Positions 3,400 to 58,864 of a stretch of DNA of 64,000 nt are shown one piece after another (position 1 is the first letter of the stretch; the number at the start of each line of letters is the position of its first letter). Source of the DNA: Patescibacteria group bacterium (GTDB lineage: Bacteria; Patescibacteriota; Microgenomatia; Levybacterales; UBA12049); the NCBI GenBank assembly GCA_038064195.1, contig JBBTTO010000002.1, positions 402,387 through 466,386 on the forward strand. Direction: 5' to 3'. Under the pieces are notes generated by a model, which was not told where the DNA came from, searched no databases, and saw nothing but the letters and a program-made list of their open reading frames with translations. The position numbers and the translations under genes are program-made.

Positions 3400-3406
3400 A
3401 TGCGAG

Positions 3407-3427
3407 AGCAAAGAGCAAAGAGCAAAG
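3407..3427 (+). repeat. (AGCAAAG)3 heptanucleotide tandem repeat in the aspS 5' leader
   Basis: gagAGCAAAGAGCAAAGAGCAAAGatt, three perfect units ending 8 nt before the aspS start codon. Confidence 0.7.
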
Positions 3428-3434
3428 ATTTTCT

Positions 3435-4857: not shown

Positions 4858-5865
4858 TTGACTGTTAACTATAATAAAAGCGTGGCTACTAAAAAGAAGA
4901 TTATCAAAAAGAAAGTGCCTCGGAGGGTAAAATTCGGAGTTTTTTTCAGGAGACACGAAGCGGATTTCAGACTGGCTCTTATCCCGTTGATCTTAGGTGT
5001 AGTGTGGGTGATCTTATCAATCATTACCACCCGTGTACAACTGCAAGCTAAGCAGGAACAAATAAATCTTCAGTCAATCGCCCAGACGGCAACCCCCTAT
5101 ACCTATTTCAGCCAACCGATAATTCCGCCAATTACCGCTGAAGCTGCAACGATCATCGATCGTGACAGCAAAAGTATCCTTTATGAGAAGAACGCGAGCG
5201 TACGTTTTGCTATGGCATCAACGACAAAGCTTATGACTGCGGTGGTGGCAATGGATTATTTCAAACCGGAAAGCATACTGACTGCTTTTACTGCAAATGT
5301 CGAGGGAGTCAATGTAGGCCTGACAGTTGGTGATCACTTACGATTTAAGGATAGCCTGTATGCCATGTTGCTGCCGTCCGGGAATGACGTGGCGCTGATG
5401 ATTGCCCAGAATTACCCGGGGGGTGAGGAAAGTTTTGTAAAAGCAATGAACGCGAAAGCACAGCAACTCCATTTGGCTAACACCCATTATGCCGATCCGG
5501 CCGGGCTTGATGATGACGGGAATTATACAACTGCCCATGAATTGGCAGAACTGGCCGCAGTAGTGAGTGTAGATCCGATACTGGCAGATGTTACCGCTAC
5601 AAAGAGTAAAATTGTGACGACAATGGATGGCAAAAAGACATTTACGCTCAATAACCTTAATCGATTACTTGGTATATCAGGGGTGACAGGTCTTAAGACA
5701 GGGCATACCGAAGGAGCAGGTGATGTACTGATCACATCCAGTATCAGTGAGGGGCATAACTATATTATCGTTGTCATGCGAAGTCAGGATCGCTTCACAG
5801 ATACCGAAGTCCTGCTTTCGAATGTAACCCGGGATGTGAGAGTTTTTACCCCGAATATTCGCTAG
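4858..5865 (+). CDS. serine-type D-Ala-D-Ala carboxypeptidase (PBP5/6-like, peptidase S11) with N-terminal membrane anchor
   Basis: SxxK (ASTTKLMTA), SxN (SGND), KTG (LKTGHTEGAG) motifs; TM helix LALIPLILGVVWVIL. The track start is TTG, so the true start is uncertain (possibly GTG further in). Confidence 0.75.
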   Translation: MTVNYNKSVATKKKIIKKKVPRRVKFGVFFRRHEADFRLALIPLILGVVWVILSIITTRVQLQAKQEQINLQSIAQTATPYTYFSQPIIPPITAEAATIIDRDSKSILYEKNASVRFAMASTTKLMTAVVAMDYFKPESILTAFTANVEGVNVGLTVGDHLRFKDSLYAMLLPSGNDVALMIAQNYPGGEESFVKAMNAKAQQLHLANTHYADPAGLDDDGNYTTAHELAELAAVVSVDPILADVTATKSKIVTTMDGKKTFTLNNLNRLLGISGVTGLKTGHTEGAGDVLITSSISEGHNYIIVVMRSQDRFTDTEVLLSNVTRDVRVFTPNIR

Positions 5866-13012: not shown

Positions 13013-13723
13013 ATGTATTCAGTCGTCATACCCGCCTACAACGAAGAAAAATTTATCGGCAGCTGCCTGGAAGCACTTACCAAGCAGGATACGCACGAAA
13101 AATTCGAGGTTATCCTCGTTGATAATAATTCATCAGACCAAACAGTAGAGATAGCGAGAAAATTTAAAGACAGACTGGATCTGAAGATCATAAAACAGGA
13201 AATAAAAGGAAGGGGTCCAGCACGGGCCAAAGGCTTCGAGCACGCTTCAGGCGAAATTATTTTCTCACTGGATGCTGACACTATCGCCCCCCCTCAGTGG
13301 ATTAGCCATCTATCGAGCAAATTAAAACAGAGTAACGGGGTAGCTGTCGCGGGTACCTGCCGGATCAAAGATTGTCCGCGACATATCAATCTGCTTTTTA
13401 ATTTCTCTCAACCTCTGATGATGAGGGCTTATCGACTCTTCGTGGGTCATTATTGGCTAAATGGCTTTAATTCCGCAATTTATAAGGAGGCGTACAAAAA
13501 ATCAGGTGGCTTTGATGTCGACTTAAATGCACAGGAGGATGTGGAGCTATCTTTTCGGGTGAGTAAAATCGGGAAGATAATTTTTCTTCCTCAAATCGCG
13601 GTCATATTTTCGGGCAGACGTTTTCGTAACGGGTTTTTCCGCGGCCTTGTGCCATACCTCATGACCTATGCAGGATATTTTTTCTTCAAAAATAAAAAGA
13701 TAATTCTTAGCGACGAGCGCTAG
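13013..13723 (+). CDS. glycosyltransferase family 2
   Basis: VVIPAYNEEKFIGSCLEAL...VILVDNNSSDQT...SLDADT, a GT-A DxD-type signature. Confidence 0.8.
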   Translation: MYSVVIPAYNEEKFIGSCLEALTKQDTHEKFEVILVDNNSSDQTVEIARKFKDRLDLKIIKQEIKGRGPARAKGFEHASGEIIFSLDADTIAPPQWISHLSSKLKQSNGVAVAGTCRIKDCPRHINLLFNFSQPLMMRAYRLFVGHYWLNGFNSAIYKEAYKKSGGFDVDLNAQEDVELSFRVSKIGKIIFLPQIAVIFSGRRFRNGFFRGLVPYLMTYAGYFFFKNKKIILSDER

Positions 13724-18499: not shown

Positions 18500-18574
18500 G
18501 TATTATGTAGCCTGTATAGGTATAAATAAAAGGTATTAATCATACATTATACATACTACTTGATACATGCTACA
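18500..18574 (+). repeat. direct repeat DR1 (GTATTATGTAG...TTATACATACTACTTGATACAWGCTACA); second copy at 21804-21869
   Basis: An 11-mer plus a 28-mer (27/28 identical) shared with the rarA upstream region; both copies sit about 45 nt upstream of a gene start. Confidence 0.6.
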
Positions 18575-18618
18575 TTTTACTCGCTTTACTTATTTAGTGG
18601 AAATACTACAATAACAGT

Positions 18619-19608
18619 GTGCAGCGGATAATTCCCCCCAAACTTAAAACAGGTGATACGATTCGAATAATCGCCCCGTCTGATGCCCATACTGCTGATA
18701 ACAAACCAGAGGATATAAAGTTAGCTCAGAAAAATTTGGAGTCATTAGGTTTGAAAGTAACGTATGGCGAACACATTACGGAGATCGATGAATTTAAATC
18801 ATCAAGTATTGAGTCCCGCATTACTGATCTTCATGCAGCCTTTGAGGATCCTGATGTCAAAATGGTTTTGGCAAGTGATGGCGGGTGGATTGCCAACCAA
18901 TTACTTCGCTATATTGACTGGGAATTGATTAGAAAAAATCCTAAAATACTCTGTGGTTACTCAGATATCACAGCACTCAATAATAGTATTTTTGCTAAGA
19001 CAGGAGTTGTAACTTACTCAGGTCCTCTTTTTTGTATATTTCCCATGCAGGAAGGTTCAGAGTATATGATTGACCATGTTAAAAAGTGTTTATTTAGCGA
19101 TGACCCCTACGAAATAAAACCAAGTGACAATTGGAGCAATGATGAATGGTGGAAGCATGTAAAGAAGCGAAAGTTTTATCCCAATGAGGGTTGGCTAGTA
19201 ATCAATGAAGGGGAAGCTGAAGGAATATCACTGGGGGGCAACCAATGTACGCTTAATCTTTTACAGGGCACAGAATATATGCCGGATCTGAAGGATTCAA
19301 TTCTCTTTCTGGAGGATGACTATGAAGTATTACCAAAGACATTTGATCGCGATCTGCAGTCTCTGATCCATCTCCCGAGTTTCACAGGCGTAAAGGGAAT
19401 AATAATCGGCAGATTTGAAAAAGTCTCAAAGATGTCTGATCATCTGATCACTGAAATTATAAAGAGGAAAAAAGAACTTGATCATATCCCGGTCATAGCC
19501 AATGTCGACTTCGGACATACTGATCCCAAGATCACTTTTCCAGTCGGTGGGAGAGTGAGCATGAAGGCGAATAAAAAGGATTCTGTGATAACAGTCCTCG
19601 AACACTAG
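18619..19608 (+). CDS. ldcA: LD-carboxypeptidase (peptidase S66, muramoyltetrapeptide carboxypeptidase)
   Basis: CGYSDITAL with the nucleophile Ser, and the conserved C-terminal His/Glu region (DFGHTDP). Confidence 0.75.
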   Translation: MQRIIPPKLKTGDTIRIIAPSDAHTADNKPEDIKLAQKNLESLGLKVTYGEHITEIDEFKSSSIESRITDLHAAFEDPDVKMVLASDGGWIANQLLRYIDWELIRKNPKILCGYSDITALNNSIFAKTGVVTYSGPLFCIFPMQEGSEYMIDHVKKCLFSDDPYEIKPSDNWSNDEWWKHVKKRKFYPNEGWLVINEGEAEGISLGGNQCTLNLLQGTEYMPDLKDSILFLEDDYEVLPKTFDRDLQSLIHLPSFTGVKGIIIGRFEKVSKMSDHLITEIIKRKKELDHIPVIANVDFGHTDPKITFPVGGRVSMKANKKDSVITVLEH

Positions 19609-21803: not shown

Positions 21804-21869
21804 GTATTATGTAGTAGGTATCACGTATGAAAGGTATCTTCTTATACATACTACTTGATACAAGCTACA
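21804..21869 (+). repeat. direct repeat DR2, copy of 18500-18574
   Basis: gtattatgtag...ggtat...ttatacatactacttgatacaagctaca. Confidence 0.6.
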
Positions 21870-21896
21870 ACTCACTCTCTATGTTAGAATGGGGCT

Positions 21897-31985: not shown

Positions 31986-32456
31986 TTAGTTAAGGTTTAT
32001 AAAGCATTGACGGTGGAAGTGGAGTTCGGCTACTTCTCTGCTTCGTGTCTCATACCAGATATGATAGCCTTTGCGTCTACCGTCCTCAGGGTCAATCTCA
32101 AGTTTTTCTTCACACAGATCACAGGTAAATGCTTTTAATGCCGGTGGTGCCAGAGTATTCCACTCTTCAAGGATTTCTTCAAATGTCCCCGTGGCTTTTA
32201 GTGAATAGGGATTGGTCAAATTTATAGTTTTTTCTAGTGGTGGAGAGGCAAATGTCAATGTTTCTGACTGAAAAGCCTGCTCACACGTCTCATCACAGAG
32301 GTGTATTGGGACGAGAAAGCCGCTGGAGCGCAGCCAGTGATGCCAAGCTTTATTGCGATACTCCTGGCAGACAGCGCAGCGAAAACCACGATACTCAGGA
32401 TCGGATTTGATATTCCAGGACTGAACGATCTGGAGTAGCAGCTGCTGTTCGTCCAT
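31986..32456 (-). CDS. hypothetical Cys/His-rich protein (two zinc-ribbon-like CxxC/HxxC pairs)
   Basis: CAVCQEY...HLCDETC...CDLCEE...HFHRQC. Start set at ATG (MDEQQ...) rather than the track's GTG at 32471. Confidence 0.45.
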   Translation of the reverse strand: MDEQQLLLQIVQSWNIKSDPEYRGFRCAVCQEYRNKAWHHWLRSSGFLVPIHLCDETCEQAFQSETLTFASPPLEKTINLTNPYSLKATGTFEEILEEWNTLAPPALKAFTCDLCEEKLEIDPEDGRRKGYHIWYETRSREVAELHFHRQCFINLN

Positions 32457-32476
32457 ATAAAAAATATACACTTTTT

Positions 32477-32516
32477 GGGGGAAAGGGGAAAGGGGAAAGG
32501 GGAAAGGGGAAAGGGG
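32477..32516 (+). repeat. G-quadruplex-type microsatellite GGGGG(AAAGGGG)5, i.e. (GGGGAAA)n with six G-tracts
   Basis: Read directly from the sequence. It begins 21 nt upstream of the ATG of the minus-strand gene 31986-32456, and on that strand it is followed by TGTATATT (an extended -10-like element). Confidence 0.9.
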
Positions 32517-32667
32517 TCTTTATAGGTTCTGTACGTAGGATGTGGGAATTAGTTTTGAGGCTAAAATGAGTAAGGTATGCAGGAGAGAGAAGGGAGCTAC
32601 CCATCGAGGCAGCGCGGAGGCGCATATGCCTTCGGTGTCTCCCGGATACCTTACCCAAGTTATCTAG

Positions 32668-32976
32668 TTACCGGCCGCTGTCAACATGACTATTCTTGAA
32701 GATGTATTGGACTACTGCGTAACCGGTCGGAATTTGTGTACTAAAACCGAAAGGTCCTACCTCTCGGAGAACGACTACTTGATAGAGGTTGTATCCCTTC
32801 AAGCTCATTTCGTTGAGCTTTGCGGTTACCTCCTTGTCATTTTGTGGCAAGTAACAAGTCCAGGTTTGGTATTGTGGCGTTGTGGCCATTTTGAAACCTC
32901 CATAGCCGTGTGGTCTCGAACCGATTTCCGAGAACCCCGGTGTAGTTGCTTTTTTTTCAAGGGTTTCACCTTGCAT
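32668..32976 (-). CDS. hypothetical small protein, possibly DUF4177-like; low confidence
   Basis: ...QYQTWTCYLPQNDKEVTAKLNEMSLKGYNLYQVVVLREVGPFGF... loosely resembles the W-EYK...LNELG.EGWELV pattern. It overlaps an antisense plus ORF (32686-33057), so neither reading frame can be preferred. Confidence 0.25.
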   Translation of the reverse strand: MQGETLEKKATTPGFSEIGSRPHGYGGFKMATTPQYQTWTCYLPQNDKEVTAKLNEMSLKGYNLYQVVVLREVGPFGFSTQIPTGYAVVQYIFKNSHVDSGR

Positions 32977-33229
32977 CAGTTTGTTTGGCGAGGAGAAACC
33001 TCTTTAAGTAACCACATCGGGATTCTCGGAATTTTCAGCGTAGTTCTGCGGATATAAAATGTCCGCCTTTTTCGCGCTTGTACTAGATTTCCTGCATACC
33101 TTGTTAAAGTACAAAAACTAGCGAATGGCATATGGCGTATAGCAAATAGTAGAACTATCTACAACGACACAAGCTATTACTAATAGGTGATTATACCTCA
33201 AAGAATTGTTGAAAGTAAAACTATGGGGC

Positions 33230-33793: not shown

Positions 33794-33837
33794 GCTAAGC
33801 CATTACGCATAGCGCTAAGCGCCGAGCGCAAAGCGGA

Positions 33838-41019: not shown

Positions 41020-41061
41020 TAATTCTTAATTCTTAATTCTTAATTCTGTATACTGTATACT
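41020..41061 (+). repeat. (TAATTCT)4 immediately followed by (GTATACT)2, heptanucleotide tandem repeats
   Basis: ccTAATTCTTAATTCTTAATTCTTAATTCTGTATACTGTATACTctcctt-ATG, ending 6 nt before the start of the 41068 gene. Confidence 0.85.
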
Positions 41062-41067
41062 CTCCTT

Positions 41068-41661
41068 ATGCTTCCTGAGTATTTTATATTTATCGGTACA
41101 GGTATTAATGCTATTGGCGCTATCAGTTACCTCATCGATACAGTTCGCGGTCGCGTCCAACCTAACCGTGTTACTTGGTTTCTCTGGGCCTTAGCCCCTC
41201 TTGTGACTGTGGCGGCGCAGCTTGATCAGGGAGTTGGGTTGCCTGCTCTTTTGACATTCAGTGTAGGTTTTTTGCCTGCACTTATTGTTATTGCTTCATT
41301 TTTTAATAAAAAAGCAGTCTGGAAGATTACTCGTTTTGATATCTTTTGCGGGGTGCTTTCCCTAGTAGGCCTTATCCTCTGGCAGATCACAAAAGTAGGA
41401 AATATTGCTATTTTACTAAGCATAGTCGCTGATCTTTTTGCCGGTATTCCGACATTTCGTAAAGCATATTCGCATCCGGATTCTGAGAGTTTTAGGGCTT
41501 TTTTCCTGGGGGCTATTGGGGCTGTCCTTGTCATACTTACTATTACCACGTGGACATTTGCTGTGGCTGCTTTTTCAGTTTATTTCTTCCTGAGCAATTC
41601 ATTGATCGCCTTCCTCGTTAAGTCCCGCATCGGCGCTCGATCCAGACATCAAATACAATAG
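41068..41661 (+). CDS. polytopic inner-membrane protein (5-6 TM), unknown function
   Basis: Hydrophobic helices throughout; no motif recognised. Confidence 0.5.
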   Translation: MLPEYFIFIGTGINAIGAISYLIDTVRGRVQPNRVTWFLWALAPLVTVAAQLDQGVGLPALLTFSVGFLPALIVIASFFNKKAVWKITRFDIFCGVLSLVGLILWQITKVGNIAILLSIVADLFAGIPTFRKAYSHPDSESFRAFFLGAIGAVLVILTITTWTFAVAAFSVYFFLSNSLIAFLVKSRIGARSRHQIQ

Positions 41662-45248: not shown

Positions 45249-45857
45249 TTATTTACCAGCTTCGTCGAGTCTTTTTGCCACGTCGTCCCAGTTGACGATA
45301 TTCCACCAGGCAGCGATATAGTCAGGCCGTTTATTATAGTACTGGAGATAGTACGCATGTTCCCAGACATCCAGCCCCAGAAGGGGGATTTTCCCTTGAG
45401 TTAGCGGGCTATCCTGATTGGGCGTACTCATCAGTGAGACCTCTCCGTTATTATAGACGAGCCACTGCCAGCCGCTGCCAAAAACTTTGGTCGCTTTTTC
45501 CGTAAACTCATTTTGGAAAGTTTTGATTTCCCCAAAGCTGTGTTGGATTTTATCTTTGAGTGTTCCTGTGGGCACTTGATCCTTTTTAGGTGCCATCATT
45601 TCCCAGAACAGGGAGTGATTGTAGTGCCCGCCGCCGTGATTGCGGACTGTCATACGGATATCCTCAGGTATTTTGTCAAGGGAAGTGACGAGTTCTTCAA
45701 TCGGTTTGCCCTGCCACTCTGGATATTTCTCCAAAGCTTTATTGAGGGTATCGACATAGGTGCGATGGTGTTTGTCATGGTGGAGATGCTGGATGTCAGT
45801 ACTGATAAAAGGCGCGAGGGCGTCGTATTCATAGGGGAGGTCAGGGAGAGTGTACAT
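45249..45857 (-). CDS. sodA: Fe/Mn superoxide dismutase
   Basis: YTLPDLPYEYDALAPFIS, HHDKHH and DVWEHAYYL signatures. Confidence 0.9.
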   Translation of the reverse strand: MYTLPDLPYEYDALAPFISTDIQHLHHDKHHRTYVDTLNKALEKYPEWQGKPIEELVTSLDKIPEDIRMTVRNHGGGHYNHSLFWEMMAPKKDQVPTGTLKDKIQHSFGEIKTFQNEFTEKATKVFGSGWQWLVYNNGEVSLMSTPNQDSPLTQGKIPLLGLDVWEHAYYLQYYNKRPDYIAAWWNIVNWDDVAKRLDEAGK

Positions 45858-57203: not shown

Positions 57204-58864
57204 TAAAAAAAATCTATCCCGGTTTATTGCTTATTGTTTATTGTTTACTGACCTCCTTGCCTGTCATCCTGCCTTATTTTCACCCGGGCTATTTCCCCAC
57301 ACATGACGGTGAATGGGCTGTAATACGATTAGGTGATATGTTCAGGAGTTTACGTGATCACCAATTTCCTGTGCGTTTCAGTGGCAACCTTAACTTTGGC
57401 TATGGCTATCCGCTATTTAACTTCACCTATCCTGCCCCTTATTACATCGGAGTTCTTTTTCATTTCCTCAAATTCGGCTTTGTCGATACGATTAAAATAC
57501 TCTTTGCCCTGAGCGTTGTCCTCTCCGCGATCGGGATGTTTTTGTTATCAGCCAGGCTTTGGGGTCATAAGATGGCAGGCTTCATTAGCGCATTTTTATA
57601 TGTTTATTTTCCCTACCGCATAGTGGATCTGTATGCACGGGGGTCAATTGGTGAATCACTTTCTTTTGCTCTCTTTCCGTTTGTTCTTTTTTTTCTTGAT
57701 AGGATTCTTTCGGGGAATAAGACATATTTATATGTAGCGCTCGGTTCACTGAGTTATGCGTTGCTTATTTTGACGCACAATATTATGGCAGTCCTTTTTA
57801 CCCCTGTTCTTATAGTTTTTATTTTTGGGAGGATGTATTTTGAAAAGTCCAAAAATTTTTTACCTCCTCTTGTTTTTATTACCCTCAGCTTTATCCTGTC
57901 CGCATTTTTTTGGTTACCGGCACTTGTTGAAAAAAACAGTATTCTTCTTTCCCGTATTCCCATAGCTGATAGGAGTATTTACTTTGTCAATCTGTCTCAG
58001 TTGATCATTCCTCGGTGGGGATATGGTCTGCCTGATCATCCGGACGGTTTTTCTTATCAAATCGGCTTGCCGCATATTATTATAGTTCTTACCGTCTTAG
58101 GTCTTTTACTTTATTTTTGGCAAGCCAGGAAAAAAGTTCTGACGAAATATCATTTTCAGTTGTCCGTTCTTTTACTTATTATAGTTGTGGCTTTTGTGTC
58201 TATGATGTTTTCTGTGAGTTCTCTGCTTTGGCAGGCTCCTCTGCTTAAAGAAATTAATTATCCTTGGACACTTCTTGGGCCTCTATGTTTTGTGATCAGT
58301 CTTCTGGCGGGGTTTCTTTGTTTGCAGCATAAGTTCATCAAATACCTCTCAGTTGTTCTCTGTGTTGTAGCTGGTATACTTATTCTGCCCAATGCCAGGC
58401 CGTCTTCGTATTTTGACAAGGGGGATAGTTATTATTTGACCAATGACGCGACGACGACCTCGTCGAGGGAGTTAATGCCTTTATGGGTCAAGACCCAGCC
58501 TTCTCTCCGCGTGGAGCAAAAGGTAGAAGTTATAAAAGGGGAGGGAAGTATCTCAAATAGTTTTGCTGATTCGCGTTTAATTACTTTTGTCGTTGATGCC
58601 AAAGACAAGATAACGCTGCGGATCAATACCATTTATTATCCGGGGTGGACTATACAAGCTAACGGAGTTGCTGTCCCGATTGATTATACGAACAGGCTTG
58701 GAGTTATGGATATCACTGTTCCCGTCGGGCGGCATGAGATTATCGCGAAGTTTGGGGAGACGCCATTGAGACTTACTGCCGATATCCTGTCGCTGGTTGG
58801 AATTATCATTGTCTTGTATCTGATTATAATGGATCGCTTCAAGATCAAATTTTTAAAATCATGA
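57200..58864 (+). CDS. polytopic membrane protein, GT-C/YfhO-related (PTPS-related membrane family-like)
   Basis: FHPGYFPTHDGEWAVIRLGDMFRSLRDHQFPVRFSGNLNFGYGYPLFNFTYPAPYYIG; C-terminal YYPGWTIQANGVAVPIDYTNRLGVMDITVPVGRHEI beta-domain followed by a final TM. Confidence 0.45.
   Translation: MIKKIYPGLLLIVYCLLTSLPVILPYFHPGYFPTHDGEWAVIRLGDMFRSLRDHQFPVRFSGNLNFGYGYPLFNFTYPAPYYIGVLFHFLKFGFVDTIKILFALSVVLSAIGMFLLSARLWGHKMAGFISAFLYVYFPYRIVDLYARGSIGESLSFALFPFVLFFLDRILSGNKTYLYVALGSLSYALLILTHNIMAVLFTPVLIVFIFGRMYFEKSKNFLPPLVFITLSFILSAFFWLPALVEKNSILLSRIPIADRSIYFVNLSQLIIPRWGYGLPDHPDGFSYQIGLPHIIIVLTVLGLLLYFWQARKKVLTKYHFQLSVLLLIIVVAFVSMMFSVSSLLWQAPLLKEINYPWTLLGPLCFVISLLAGFLCLQHKFIKYLSVVLCVVAGILILPNARPSSYFDKGDSYYLTNDATTTSSRELMPLWVKTQPSLRVEQKVEVIKGEGSISNSFADSRLITFVVDAKDKITLRINTIYYPGWTIQANGVAVPIDYTNRLGVMDITVPVGRHEIIAKFGETPLRLTADILSLVGIIIVLYLIIMDRFKIKFLKS

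Follow-up and report, generated by a model that had tools for sequence, protein, structure and literature searches.

The window analysed here, a 64,000-nt stretch of a Patescibacteria (CPR) metagenome-assembled genome from Hainich groundwater, carries on its minus strand a gene (31986–32456) for a 156-aa Cys/His-rich protein (MEK7605324.1, locus AAB478_02245), with the ATG at 32456 and the stop codon at 31986–31988. The protein is built from two repeated modules, W..PEYRGFRCxxCQ...W.HW...H.C..C and CDxC...KG.H.W...ELHFH..C. Twelve close homologues were found, and relatives occur in 37 species-level genomes, nearly all of which are labelled CPR or DPANN. Searches of Pfam, NCBIfam, PADLOC and PHROG returned no match for this protein, and comparison of its confident AlphaFold (AF2) model (pLDDT 90.8) with the folds in the PDB also gave no match. 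It has no hydrophobic N-terminus and, judged by its sequence, looks like a cytoplasmic protein and not a surface or restriction-modification product. A two-component system, consisting of an OmpR-type response regulator and a GAF histidine kinase, flanks the locus, and its synteny with the Cys-rich gene is kept in four relatives (L002, L003, L004 and L009). The same locus is also present on Hainich contigs of up to 1.08 Mb, such as Hain_H52_01um_R3.

Upstream of the gene and on the same strand lie, in order, a perfect heptanucleotide microsatellite (32477–32516), a 46-nt spacer (32517–32562), a Y-shaped hairpin element of about 95 nt (32563–32657) and a small open reading frame. The hairpin element has a 17-bp basal stem and two internal hairpins and ends in UCAUUUU, and the spacer extends from this U-run to the tract. 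The element shares 90% identity with its copy in L003 (2417–2513), where the neighbouring genes share 71–84%. The copy in L010 (2885–2985) has a diverged interior and the same Y shape, with four compensatory pairs and a z-score of −9.35. Rfam gave no match for either the tract or the hairpin element, at the gathering threshold or at E≤10. The element looks like, at minimum, a terminator for the upstream ORF, and its predicted structure may also be that of a small structured RNA or a recombination site. Because the element is terminator-like, the Cys-rich gene would need a promoter of its own within the 106 nt that contain the tract.

The upstream ORF (32668–32889, minus strand; 73 aa, called as 102 aa in some records) has a GGAGG ribosome-binding site and belongs to a lineage-variable cargo. 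An arm motif of the hairpin element, AAGGTATGCAGGA, recurs at 33089–33104 and at 833–847 of L010, and its copies bracket the variable cargo between a 187-aa gene and the Cys-rich gene (window 32990–32668). The place of the 73-aa ORF is taken by unrelated 46-aa and 98-aa ORFs in L003 (1736–2403) and by about 2 kb of GC-rich DNA in L010 (833–2889); in L004 (524–557) it is empty, with the right arm alone left. No family match was found for the cargo proteins. A scan of metagenomes with the hairpin-arm pattern gave one match, which is eukaryote-like and was rejected as chance. We further note a long imperfect inverted repeat at 32925–33032 (TTTCCGAGAACCCCGGTG...CATCGGGATTCTCGGAA) that overlaps the 5′ region of the small ORF; its sole match, to a plant miRNA hairpin model, is at chance level.

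Read directly, the plus strand at 32477–32516 is GGGGGAAAGGGGAAAGGGGAAAGGGGAAAGGGGAAAGGGG, or G5-AAA-(G4-AAA)4-G4, and the gene (non-template) strand is correspondingly (CCCCTTT)5CCCCC. The sequence-only reading had described this as a (GGGGAAA)n tract with six G-runs, a description borne out by direct reading and by TRF, which reports 32478–32516 as a period-7 array of 5.6 copies with 100% matches and a score of 78, the highest in the window. The tract is 40 nt long and 100% purine, and 32478–32516 forms a perfect 39-nt mirror repeat that reads the same in both directions. No homopurine/homopyrimidine run in the window is longer: the runner-up measures 22 nt, and runs in shuffled sequences never exceed 22 nt. 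On both strands of the 64 kb it is also the sole instance of a motif of four runs of at least three G with loops of 1–7 nt; dinucleotide shuffles yield 0.5 such loose motifs per window, and none would be expected in the form of a perfect 39-nt periodic array. The occurrence of the tract is thus far beyond chance expectation. Its placement 21 nt upstream of the ATG also stands, as 20 bases (32457–32476, AAAAAGTGTATATTTTTTAT on the gene strand) separate it from the ATG at 32456. A telomere-like or CRISPR-like identity was considered and dropped, since the tract is a single array without spacers and its G-rich strand has A, not T.

The 20 bases between tract and gene contain the elements of a leaderless-type promoter. 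The gene start reads gtgTATATT-TTTTAT-ATG, in which the −10 hexamer TATATT (32463–32468, minus strand) ends 6 nt before the start codon, and no GGAG-like motif lies upstream. Between the hexamer and the tract is a spacer, AAAAAGTG (32469–32476, minus strand), that is homologous to AAAAAGAT in L002 and AAAAATAG in L003, and the arrangement AAAAAGTG(T)-TATAYT is also found at the promoter of the gene starting at 45857 on the minus strand. About 21 of the roughly 66 genes in the window have a (TGn)TAnnnT box ending 6–8 nt before the start codon (for example, those starting at 13013, 21897, 28876, 34642 and 45857), and few have Shine-Dalgarno motifs. Among the orthologues of the Cys-rich gene, a TAnnnT hexamer is separated from the start codon by exactly 6 nt at 11 of 38 loci (other offsets, 0–5), and the boxes are strong in nine of these eleven, as in TGCTATAAT-N6-GTG. 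These observations support the earlier claim that the tract lies in a promoter. The genome thus appears to rely widely on leaderless mRNAs, with a weak −35 consensus, as far as its start-site sequences indicate.

This geometry implies that the mRNA of the Cys-rich gene is leaderless and would place +1 at or close to the start-codon A at 32456. If so, the tract would extend from about −21 to −60 and include the −35 position, which reads TTTCCC and lies inside the array. A generic sigma-70 scan finds no promoter on the gene strand at the tract locus, because the scan demands a −35 match. Two details of the promoter proposed from sequence alone need correction. The extended −10-like element does contain a −10 hexamer, but its TG is one base off the canonical position and directly abuts the hexamer; this nTG-TATAnT arrangement is repeated at other promoters of the window. 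The repeat was also placed in the −35/spacer position, and it does contain the −35 position, but it does not lie between −35 and −10 and instead extends upstream.

The position of the tract bears on what a change in its length could do. The sequence-only reading proposed that gain or loss of 7-nt units alters promoter spacing, as in classic contingency loci. This does not hold, since the proximal edge of the tract is fixed 8 nt from the −10 hexamer, so that unit gain or loss leaves the −35/−10 spacing unchanged. By the logic of the sequence, any tract of at least three units leaves the sequence from −1 to about −41 identical whatever the unit number, and the number is without effect on the frame of the ORF. 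Each unit gained or lost shifts only the upstream DNA, that is the 46-nt spacer and the hairpin element, by 7 bp. From this arrangement an ON/OFF spacing switch is unlikely, and a graded effect is the most that would be expected. In spacer-length switches, such as those of Bordetella fim, H. influenzae hif and N. meningitidis opc and porA, poly-C, poly-G or TA repeats lie between −35 and −10. The tract resembles these in being a simple-sequence repeat inside a sigma-70-type promoter, but their repeats set the spacing of the hexamers, whereas in this promoter the proximal edge does not move and TTTCCC occupies the −35 position at any unit number.

Comparison with relatives shows that the tract is confined to the window lineage. 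The heptamer tract is absent upstream of the orthologues in L002, L003, L004, L009 and L010 (58–72% protein identity), and both of its flanks can be aligned to relatives, the proximal one through AAAAAG and the −10 box, the distal one through ...AACC(T/C)CT. In the distal flank, the 3′ part of the 46-nt spacer, CAGAACCTATAAAGAC, has its homologue in L002 in GGAAACCCTGAAAAACC. Where the tract lies in the window, the relatives read TTGCTT-17 nt-TATCGT-N6-ATG (L002) and TTGATT-17 nt-TACCCT (L003), in both cases followed by a short run of pyrimidines, CTTTTCTTTTCC in the former and TTTTCCCACC in the latter. The −35 hexamers of the relatives, TTGCTT and TTGATT, contrasted with TTTCCC here, suggest that expansion of the array overwrote the −35 element. 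The perfection of the array together with its restriction to one lineage further suggests that it is young, although 5.6 uninterrupted copies without point mutations could alternatively reflect ongoing turnover or selection.

The same comparison weighs on the idea that the CCCCTTT units are an array of binding sites, through which the OmpR-family neighbour or a protein that binds C- or G-rich single strands activates or represses the gene. The OmpR-type regulator and GAF histidine kinase flanking the locus, with synteny kept in L002, L003, L004 and L009, would be consistent with such a role, as would a promoter without a −35 element, which is often seen where promoters depend on activators. 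Direct repeats recognized by OmpR/PhoB-type regulators are spaced roughly 10–11 bp apart, and the 7-bp period of the tract is unlike this spacing. Moreover, the orthologous promoters have the same neighbouring regulators but no CCCCTTT units, and the window holds no other copy of the motif. We therefore regard a protein-binding array as improbable.

The composition of the tract gives it clear potential for non-B DNA. With six runs of 4–5 G and AAA loops it satisfies the G-quadruplex motif, as had been proposed, and has the form of a potential G-quadruplex sequence (at least four G-runs of at least three, loops of 1–7 nt). The G-rich strand is the template strand of the Cys-rich gene. ViennaRNA with the G-quadruplex option predicts a four-layer quadruplex for the single G strand at about −30 kcal/mol, compared with 0 without the quadruplex, a model energy to be read qualitatively, and predicts no competing hairpin in this strand. 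The tract also has the homopurine/homopyrimidine composition and mirror symmetry typical of H-DNA, a property that the sequence-only reading did not mention. Either structure, if formed between −21 and −60, would be expected to interfere with polymerase binding.

A structural switch independent of tract length could follow from these properties, in which a G-quadruplex on the template strand (with an i-motif on the C strand) or H-DNA would gate RNA polymerase at −21 to −60 and form according to supercoiling, K+ or pH. The six G4 runs with AAA loops, the predicted four-layer quadruplex with no competing structure and the perfect homopurine mirror repeat are all compatible with this, and by geometry the tract lies wholly inside the expected footprint of the RNA polymerase holoenzyme. 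The G-quadruplex of N. gonorrhoeae pilE is a known bacterial example, and known promoter G-quadruplexes usually consist of G3 tracts in GC-rich genomes or belong to a dedicated recombination element. Precedents for such a motif in bacterial regulatory regions include surveys of Deinococcales and Thermales (PMC6200779) and D. radiodurans (PMC12607872). The tract resembles these in carrying a canonical motif on one strand of a regulatory region, but it is a perfect (G4A3)n tandem, its genome has about 45% GC, and the orthologous promoters do not contain it. Absence from the orthologous promoters examined argues against a conserved regulatory device, and extrusion from duplex DNA in vivo is speculative. 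In addition, the other heptamer arrays of the window are unrelated to this one and have no G-quadruplex character, which points to repeat formation and not G-quadruplex potential as the common factor. A switch of this kind is thus an unlikely reading.

Whether the tract varies in length can be judged from other assemblies. Six units are found in at least six other assemblies, one of them long-read. Six runs with 100% identical flanks are present in the SPAdes-type L046 and L047 (ERZ1292617 and ERZ2470813) and in the long-read-type L048 (ERZ1286166), the last of which has 20 single-base gaps over 10.6 kb and an unaltered repeat. The valid assemblies are consensus sequences of one clonal aquifer population, and the nearest other lineages are without the tract. 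At the consensus level, within this one clonal population, all valid assemblies agree on a stable length of six units. The expectation that repeat length varies thus found no support in these assemblies, all of which are consensus sequences from one clonal population. Nor did an exact-protein look-up indicate other lengths: the products of ORFs predicted for 2–4 and 7–12 units are absent among about 15 billion proteins, and a 76-aa ORF that spans the tract and is specific to six units occurs on four contigs, in NCBI as well as in ENA. The right-junction pattern had no match when JGI metagenomes were scanned.

One Logan contig, ERR3858128_14212, has five units and otherwise differs from the window by nothing (0 mismatches and one 7-nt gap over 10,633 nt). 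Logan contig files contain only distinct 31-mers by construction (PMC12424806). The six-unit tract holds duplicate 31-mers (those at 32478 and 32485 are the same, as are those at 32479 and 32486), and every 31- to 33-mer of the five-unit contig is already present in the six-unit window sequence. The five-unit copy arises because five runs are the longest form on a path of distinct 31-mers, and we rejected it as evidence of slippage, since it is a k=31 assembly artefact.

Several further observations concern these contigs. In Logan contigs a period-7 tract of more than 37 periodic bases is not representable, and in those of ERR3858128 (L001/L057) the tract has silently lost one unit. The one-unit collapse fused the upstream ORF to the gene, giving a spurious 210-aa protein (P0001) that became a cluster representative. 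A 212-aa fusion (P0014) was likewise rejected as a change in the repeat, as it results from a 1-nt deletion in a T-run of a long-read-type contig. Logan contigs that end near the tract (L058 and L059) are uninformative, since they break 2 nt into the tract, which is not the position expected from polymorphism.

The five-unit version and the contig breaks near the tract could be taken to mean that the tract, or its length, is itself a product of sequencing or assembly. The presence of six runs in independent assemblies, including a long-read one, shows that the tract is not an assembly artefact: it is identical in L046, L047 and L048, the 76-aa ORF spanning it is found in two archives, and five units are the sole path possible in a graph of distinct 31-mers. 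An artefactual origin is accordingly extremely improbable.

Period-7 arrays are a general property of this DNA. In the window, 13 of 30 TRF rows have period 7, compared with a mean of 1.3 (maximum 4) in 40 dinucleotide shuffles, an enrichment of about ten-fold, and periods 8–11 are at chance level. Perfect arrays of at least three copies have period 7 (three arrays), period 4 (one) or period 6 (one) only. Period 7 also leads in 239 kb of relatives, where it accounts for 28 of 147 TRF rows. Examples in the window lie at 936–959, 1385–1409, 3405–3428, 18542–18575, 33806–33835, 41020–41061 and 57222–57247. Their units are unrelated between arrays, and most arrays lie just upstream of gene starts: (AGAGCAA)3.4 at 3405–3428 is placed 6 nt upstream of the ATG of the aspartyl-tRNA synthetase (AspRS) gene, and 4 nt separate an ATAGCTA array from the RecJ start codon, an ATG, downstream of it. 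The array (TAATTCT)4(GTATACT)2 at 41020–41061 on the plus strand abuts the leaderless start at 41068 (ctgTATACT-CTCCTT-ATG), where the GTATACT units duplicate the −10 box itself, making this a second promoter-fused heptamer array. It is identical in three other assemblies (L050–L052).

The sequence-only reading had grouped the arrays at 41020 and 3407 with the tract as three gene-proximal heptamer repeats. Both arrays are real, but their proximity to genes carries little weight, because about 90% of the window is coding and repeats with a unit that is not a multiple of three persist only near gene starts; a gene-proximal position is therefore the null expectation.

Other features of these arrays may be recorded here. 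An imperfect array of GCGCT plus two variable bases (CGCTTTG CGCTCGG CGCTTAG CGCTATG; 33806–33835, minus strand) directly follows the stop codon of the response regulator, and a CGCTTTG-type array occurs in L002 at a different position (5101–5129). The motif TACTTGATACA[AT]GCTACA is common to 18555–18575 and approximately 21855–21880, upstream of the leaderless genes at 18619 and 21897, and this recurrence may mark a putative common regulator site. A Logan contig, L055 (SRR32696699_632345), stops precisely at the left boundary of the AGAGCAA array (the equivalent of window 3405). This break falls where a k=31 graph would branch under unit-number polymorphism within the sample, and is only a hint that such arrays may be unstable.

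Contingency loci are characterized by an uninterrupted repeat in the promoter or 5′ end of a gene, by a repeat number that differs between or within strains, and by a surface, restriction-modification or niche-interaction target. The tract, a perfect 5.6-copy heptamer at −21 to −60, has the first of these properties. Repeat number does not differ in the consensus assemblies of the one clonal population, and the Cys-rich gene is not a target of that kind. A true contingency locus would here require frequent slippage, with unit number tuning expression of the Cys-rich gene through distal spacing, that is through the distance and helical phase (7 bp, or about 240 degrees) between the core promoter and the upstream hairpin or a regulator site. 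A perfect, uninterrupted array inside a promoter is what such a locus would show, and the conserved element 46 nt upstream of the tract and the adjoining two-component system offer possible partners. The contig break at the edge of the AGAGCAA array also hints at polymorphism in this class of repeat.

Precedents for such a locus, in which repeats act through distal spacing or the 5′ UTR, are known (PMC2791445 and PMC12721329). The TAAA tract of N. meningitidis nadA, like the tract here, is located outside the −35/−10 interval, upstream of the core promoter elements, and acts through distal spacing (PMC2791445). Mapped NadR operators and an IHF site flank the nadA tract, which is variable among strains (PMC2791445), whereas the tract here covers the −35 position itself and no variation was detected. 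The (ATCTTTC)n repeats of H. influenzae hmw1A and hmw2A resemble the tract in being 7-nt upstream repeats outside the ORF, with a unit that is not a multiple of three and a pyrimidine-rich sense strand. The hmw repeats are transcribed in a long 5′ UTR, have at least 11 units, form an RNA hairpin that is cleaved by RNase III, and are variable (PMC12721329). The tract here would be untranscribed if the mRNA is leaderless, has 5.6 units, shows no variation and precedes a gene that does not encode an adhesin.

Several of these differences tell against a contingency locus. Every valid assembly has six units and products of other unit numbers are absent from the collection of 15 billion proteins, the array of about 5.6 units is short of the at least 11 in natural hmw tracts (PMC12721329), and the target is not a typical contingency gene. 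The presence of similar arrays at housekeeping genes (AspRS and RecJ) further suggests mutational bias and not selected switches. For these reasons a contingency function of the tract appears unlikely.

A genome-wide excess of heptamers has a parallel in the STRR of heterocystous cyanobacteria, where a few defined heptamer families are reiterated at many loci. The term is used in PMC4748335 and other papers. The likeness is that tandem 7-nt units are over-represented between genes across the genome; here, however, no two arrays share a unit and the organism belongs to the CPR, and the arrays do not qualify as STRR.

Taken together, we lean, with moderate confidence, towards reading the tract as a young microsatellite, specific to this lineage, that has overwritten the −35/UP region of a leaderless promoter. 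It would be part of a period-7 slippage bias acting across the genome, and may affect expression structurally or in a graded way. In the window lineage, strand slippage would have expanded the CCCCTTT unit out of a short TTTTCC-like pyrimidine run that adjoins, on the upstream side, the AAAAAG spacer and −10 box of a sigma-70-type leaderless promoter. The ancestral −35 hexamer would have been replaced in the process, so that the array now fills −21 to −60. Period-7 arrays tend to arise throughout the scarce non-coding DNA of this compact genome, and the tract would be one outcome of that tendency. Its most likely effect would be on the basal strength of the promoter: a stiff homopurine/homopyrimidine tract would stand in place of −35/UP-element DNA, and the template strand may extrude a G-quadruplex or an H-DNA triplex under negative supercoiling, hindering closed-complex formation.

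The present value of these findings is mostly methodological and descriptive. For microsatellite mining in Logan contigs they carry a caution, namely that a k=31 collapse, which is predictable, can pass for polymorphism. Promoters of a strongly leaderless type in a CPR genome, and a tandem-repeat excess of about ten-fold that is specific to period 7, are documented in the window, and the tract would be a clear case of a −35 element overwritten by a microsatellite. A bolder possibility, which we consider quite unlikely, is that period-7 microsatellites form a genome-wide, hypermutable layer of promoter tuning in ultra-small CPR bacteria whose genes depend on leaderless, −10-driven promoters, with arrays such as the tract lengthening and shortening in wild populations and, along with non-B DNA formation, determining the expression of single genes. 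Outside host-adapted pathogens, a groundwater lineage that is free-living or episymbiotic would then possess a contingency-like system. If the tract or other heptamer arrays prove variable in length, simple-sequence contingency behaviour would extend to the Candidate Phyla Radiation, and in genomes of about 1 Mb with few regulators, mutational tuning of promoters could, if true, matter.
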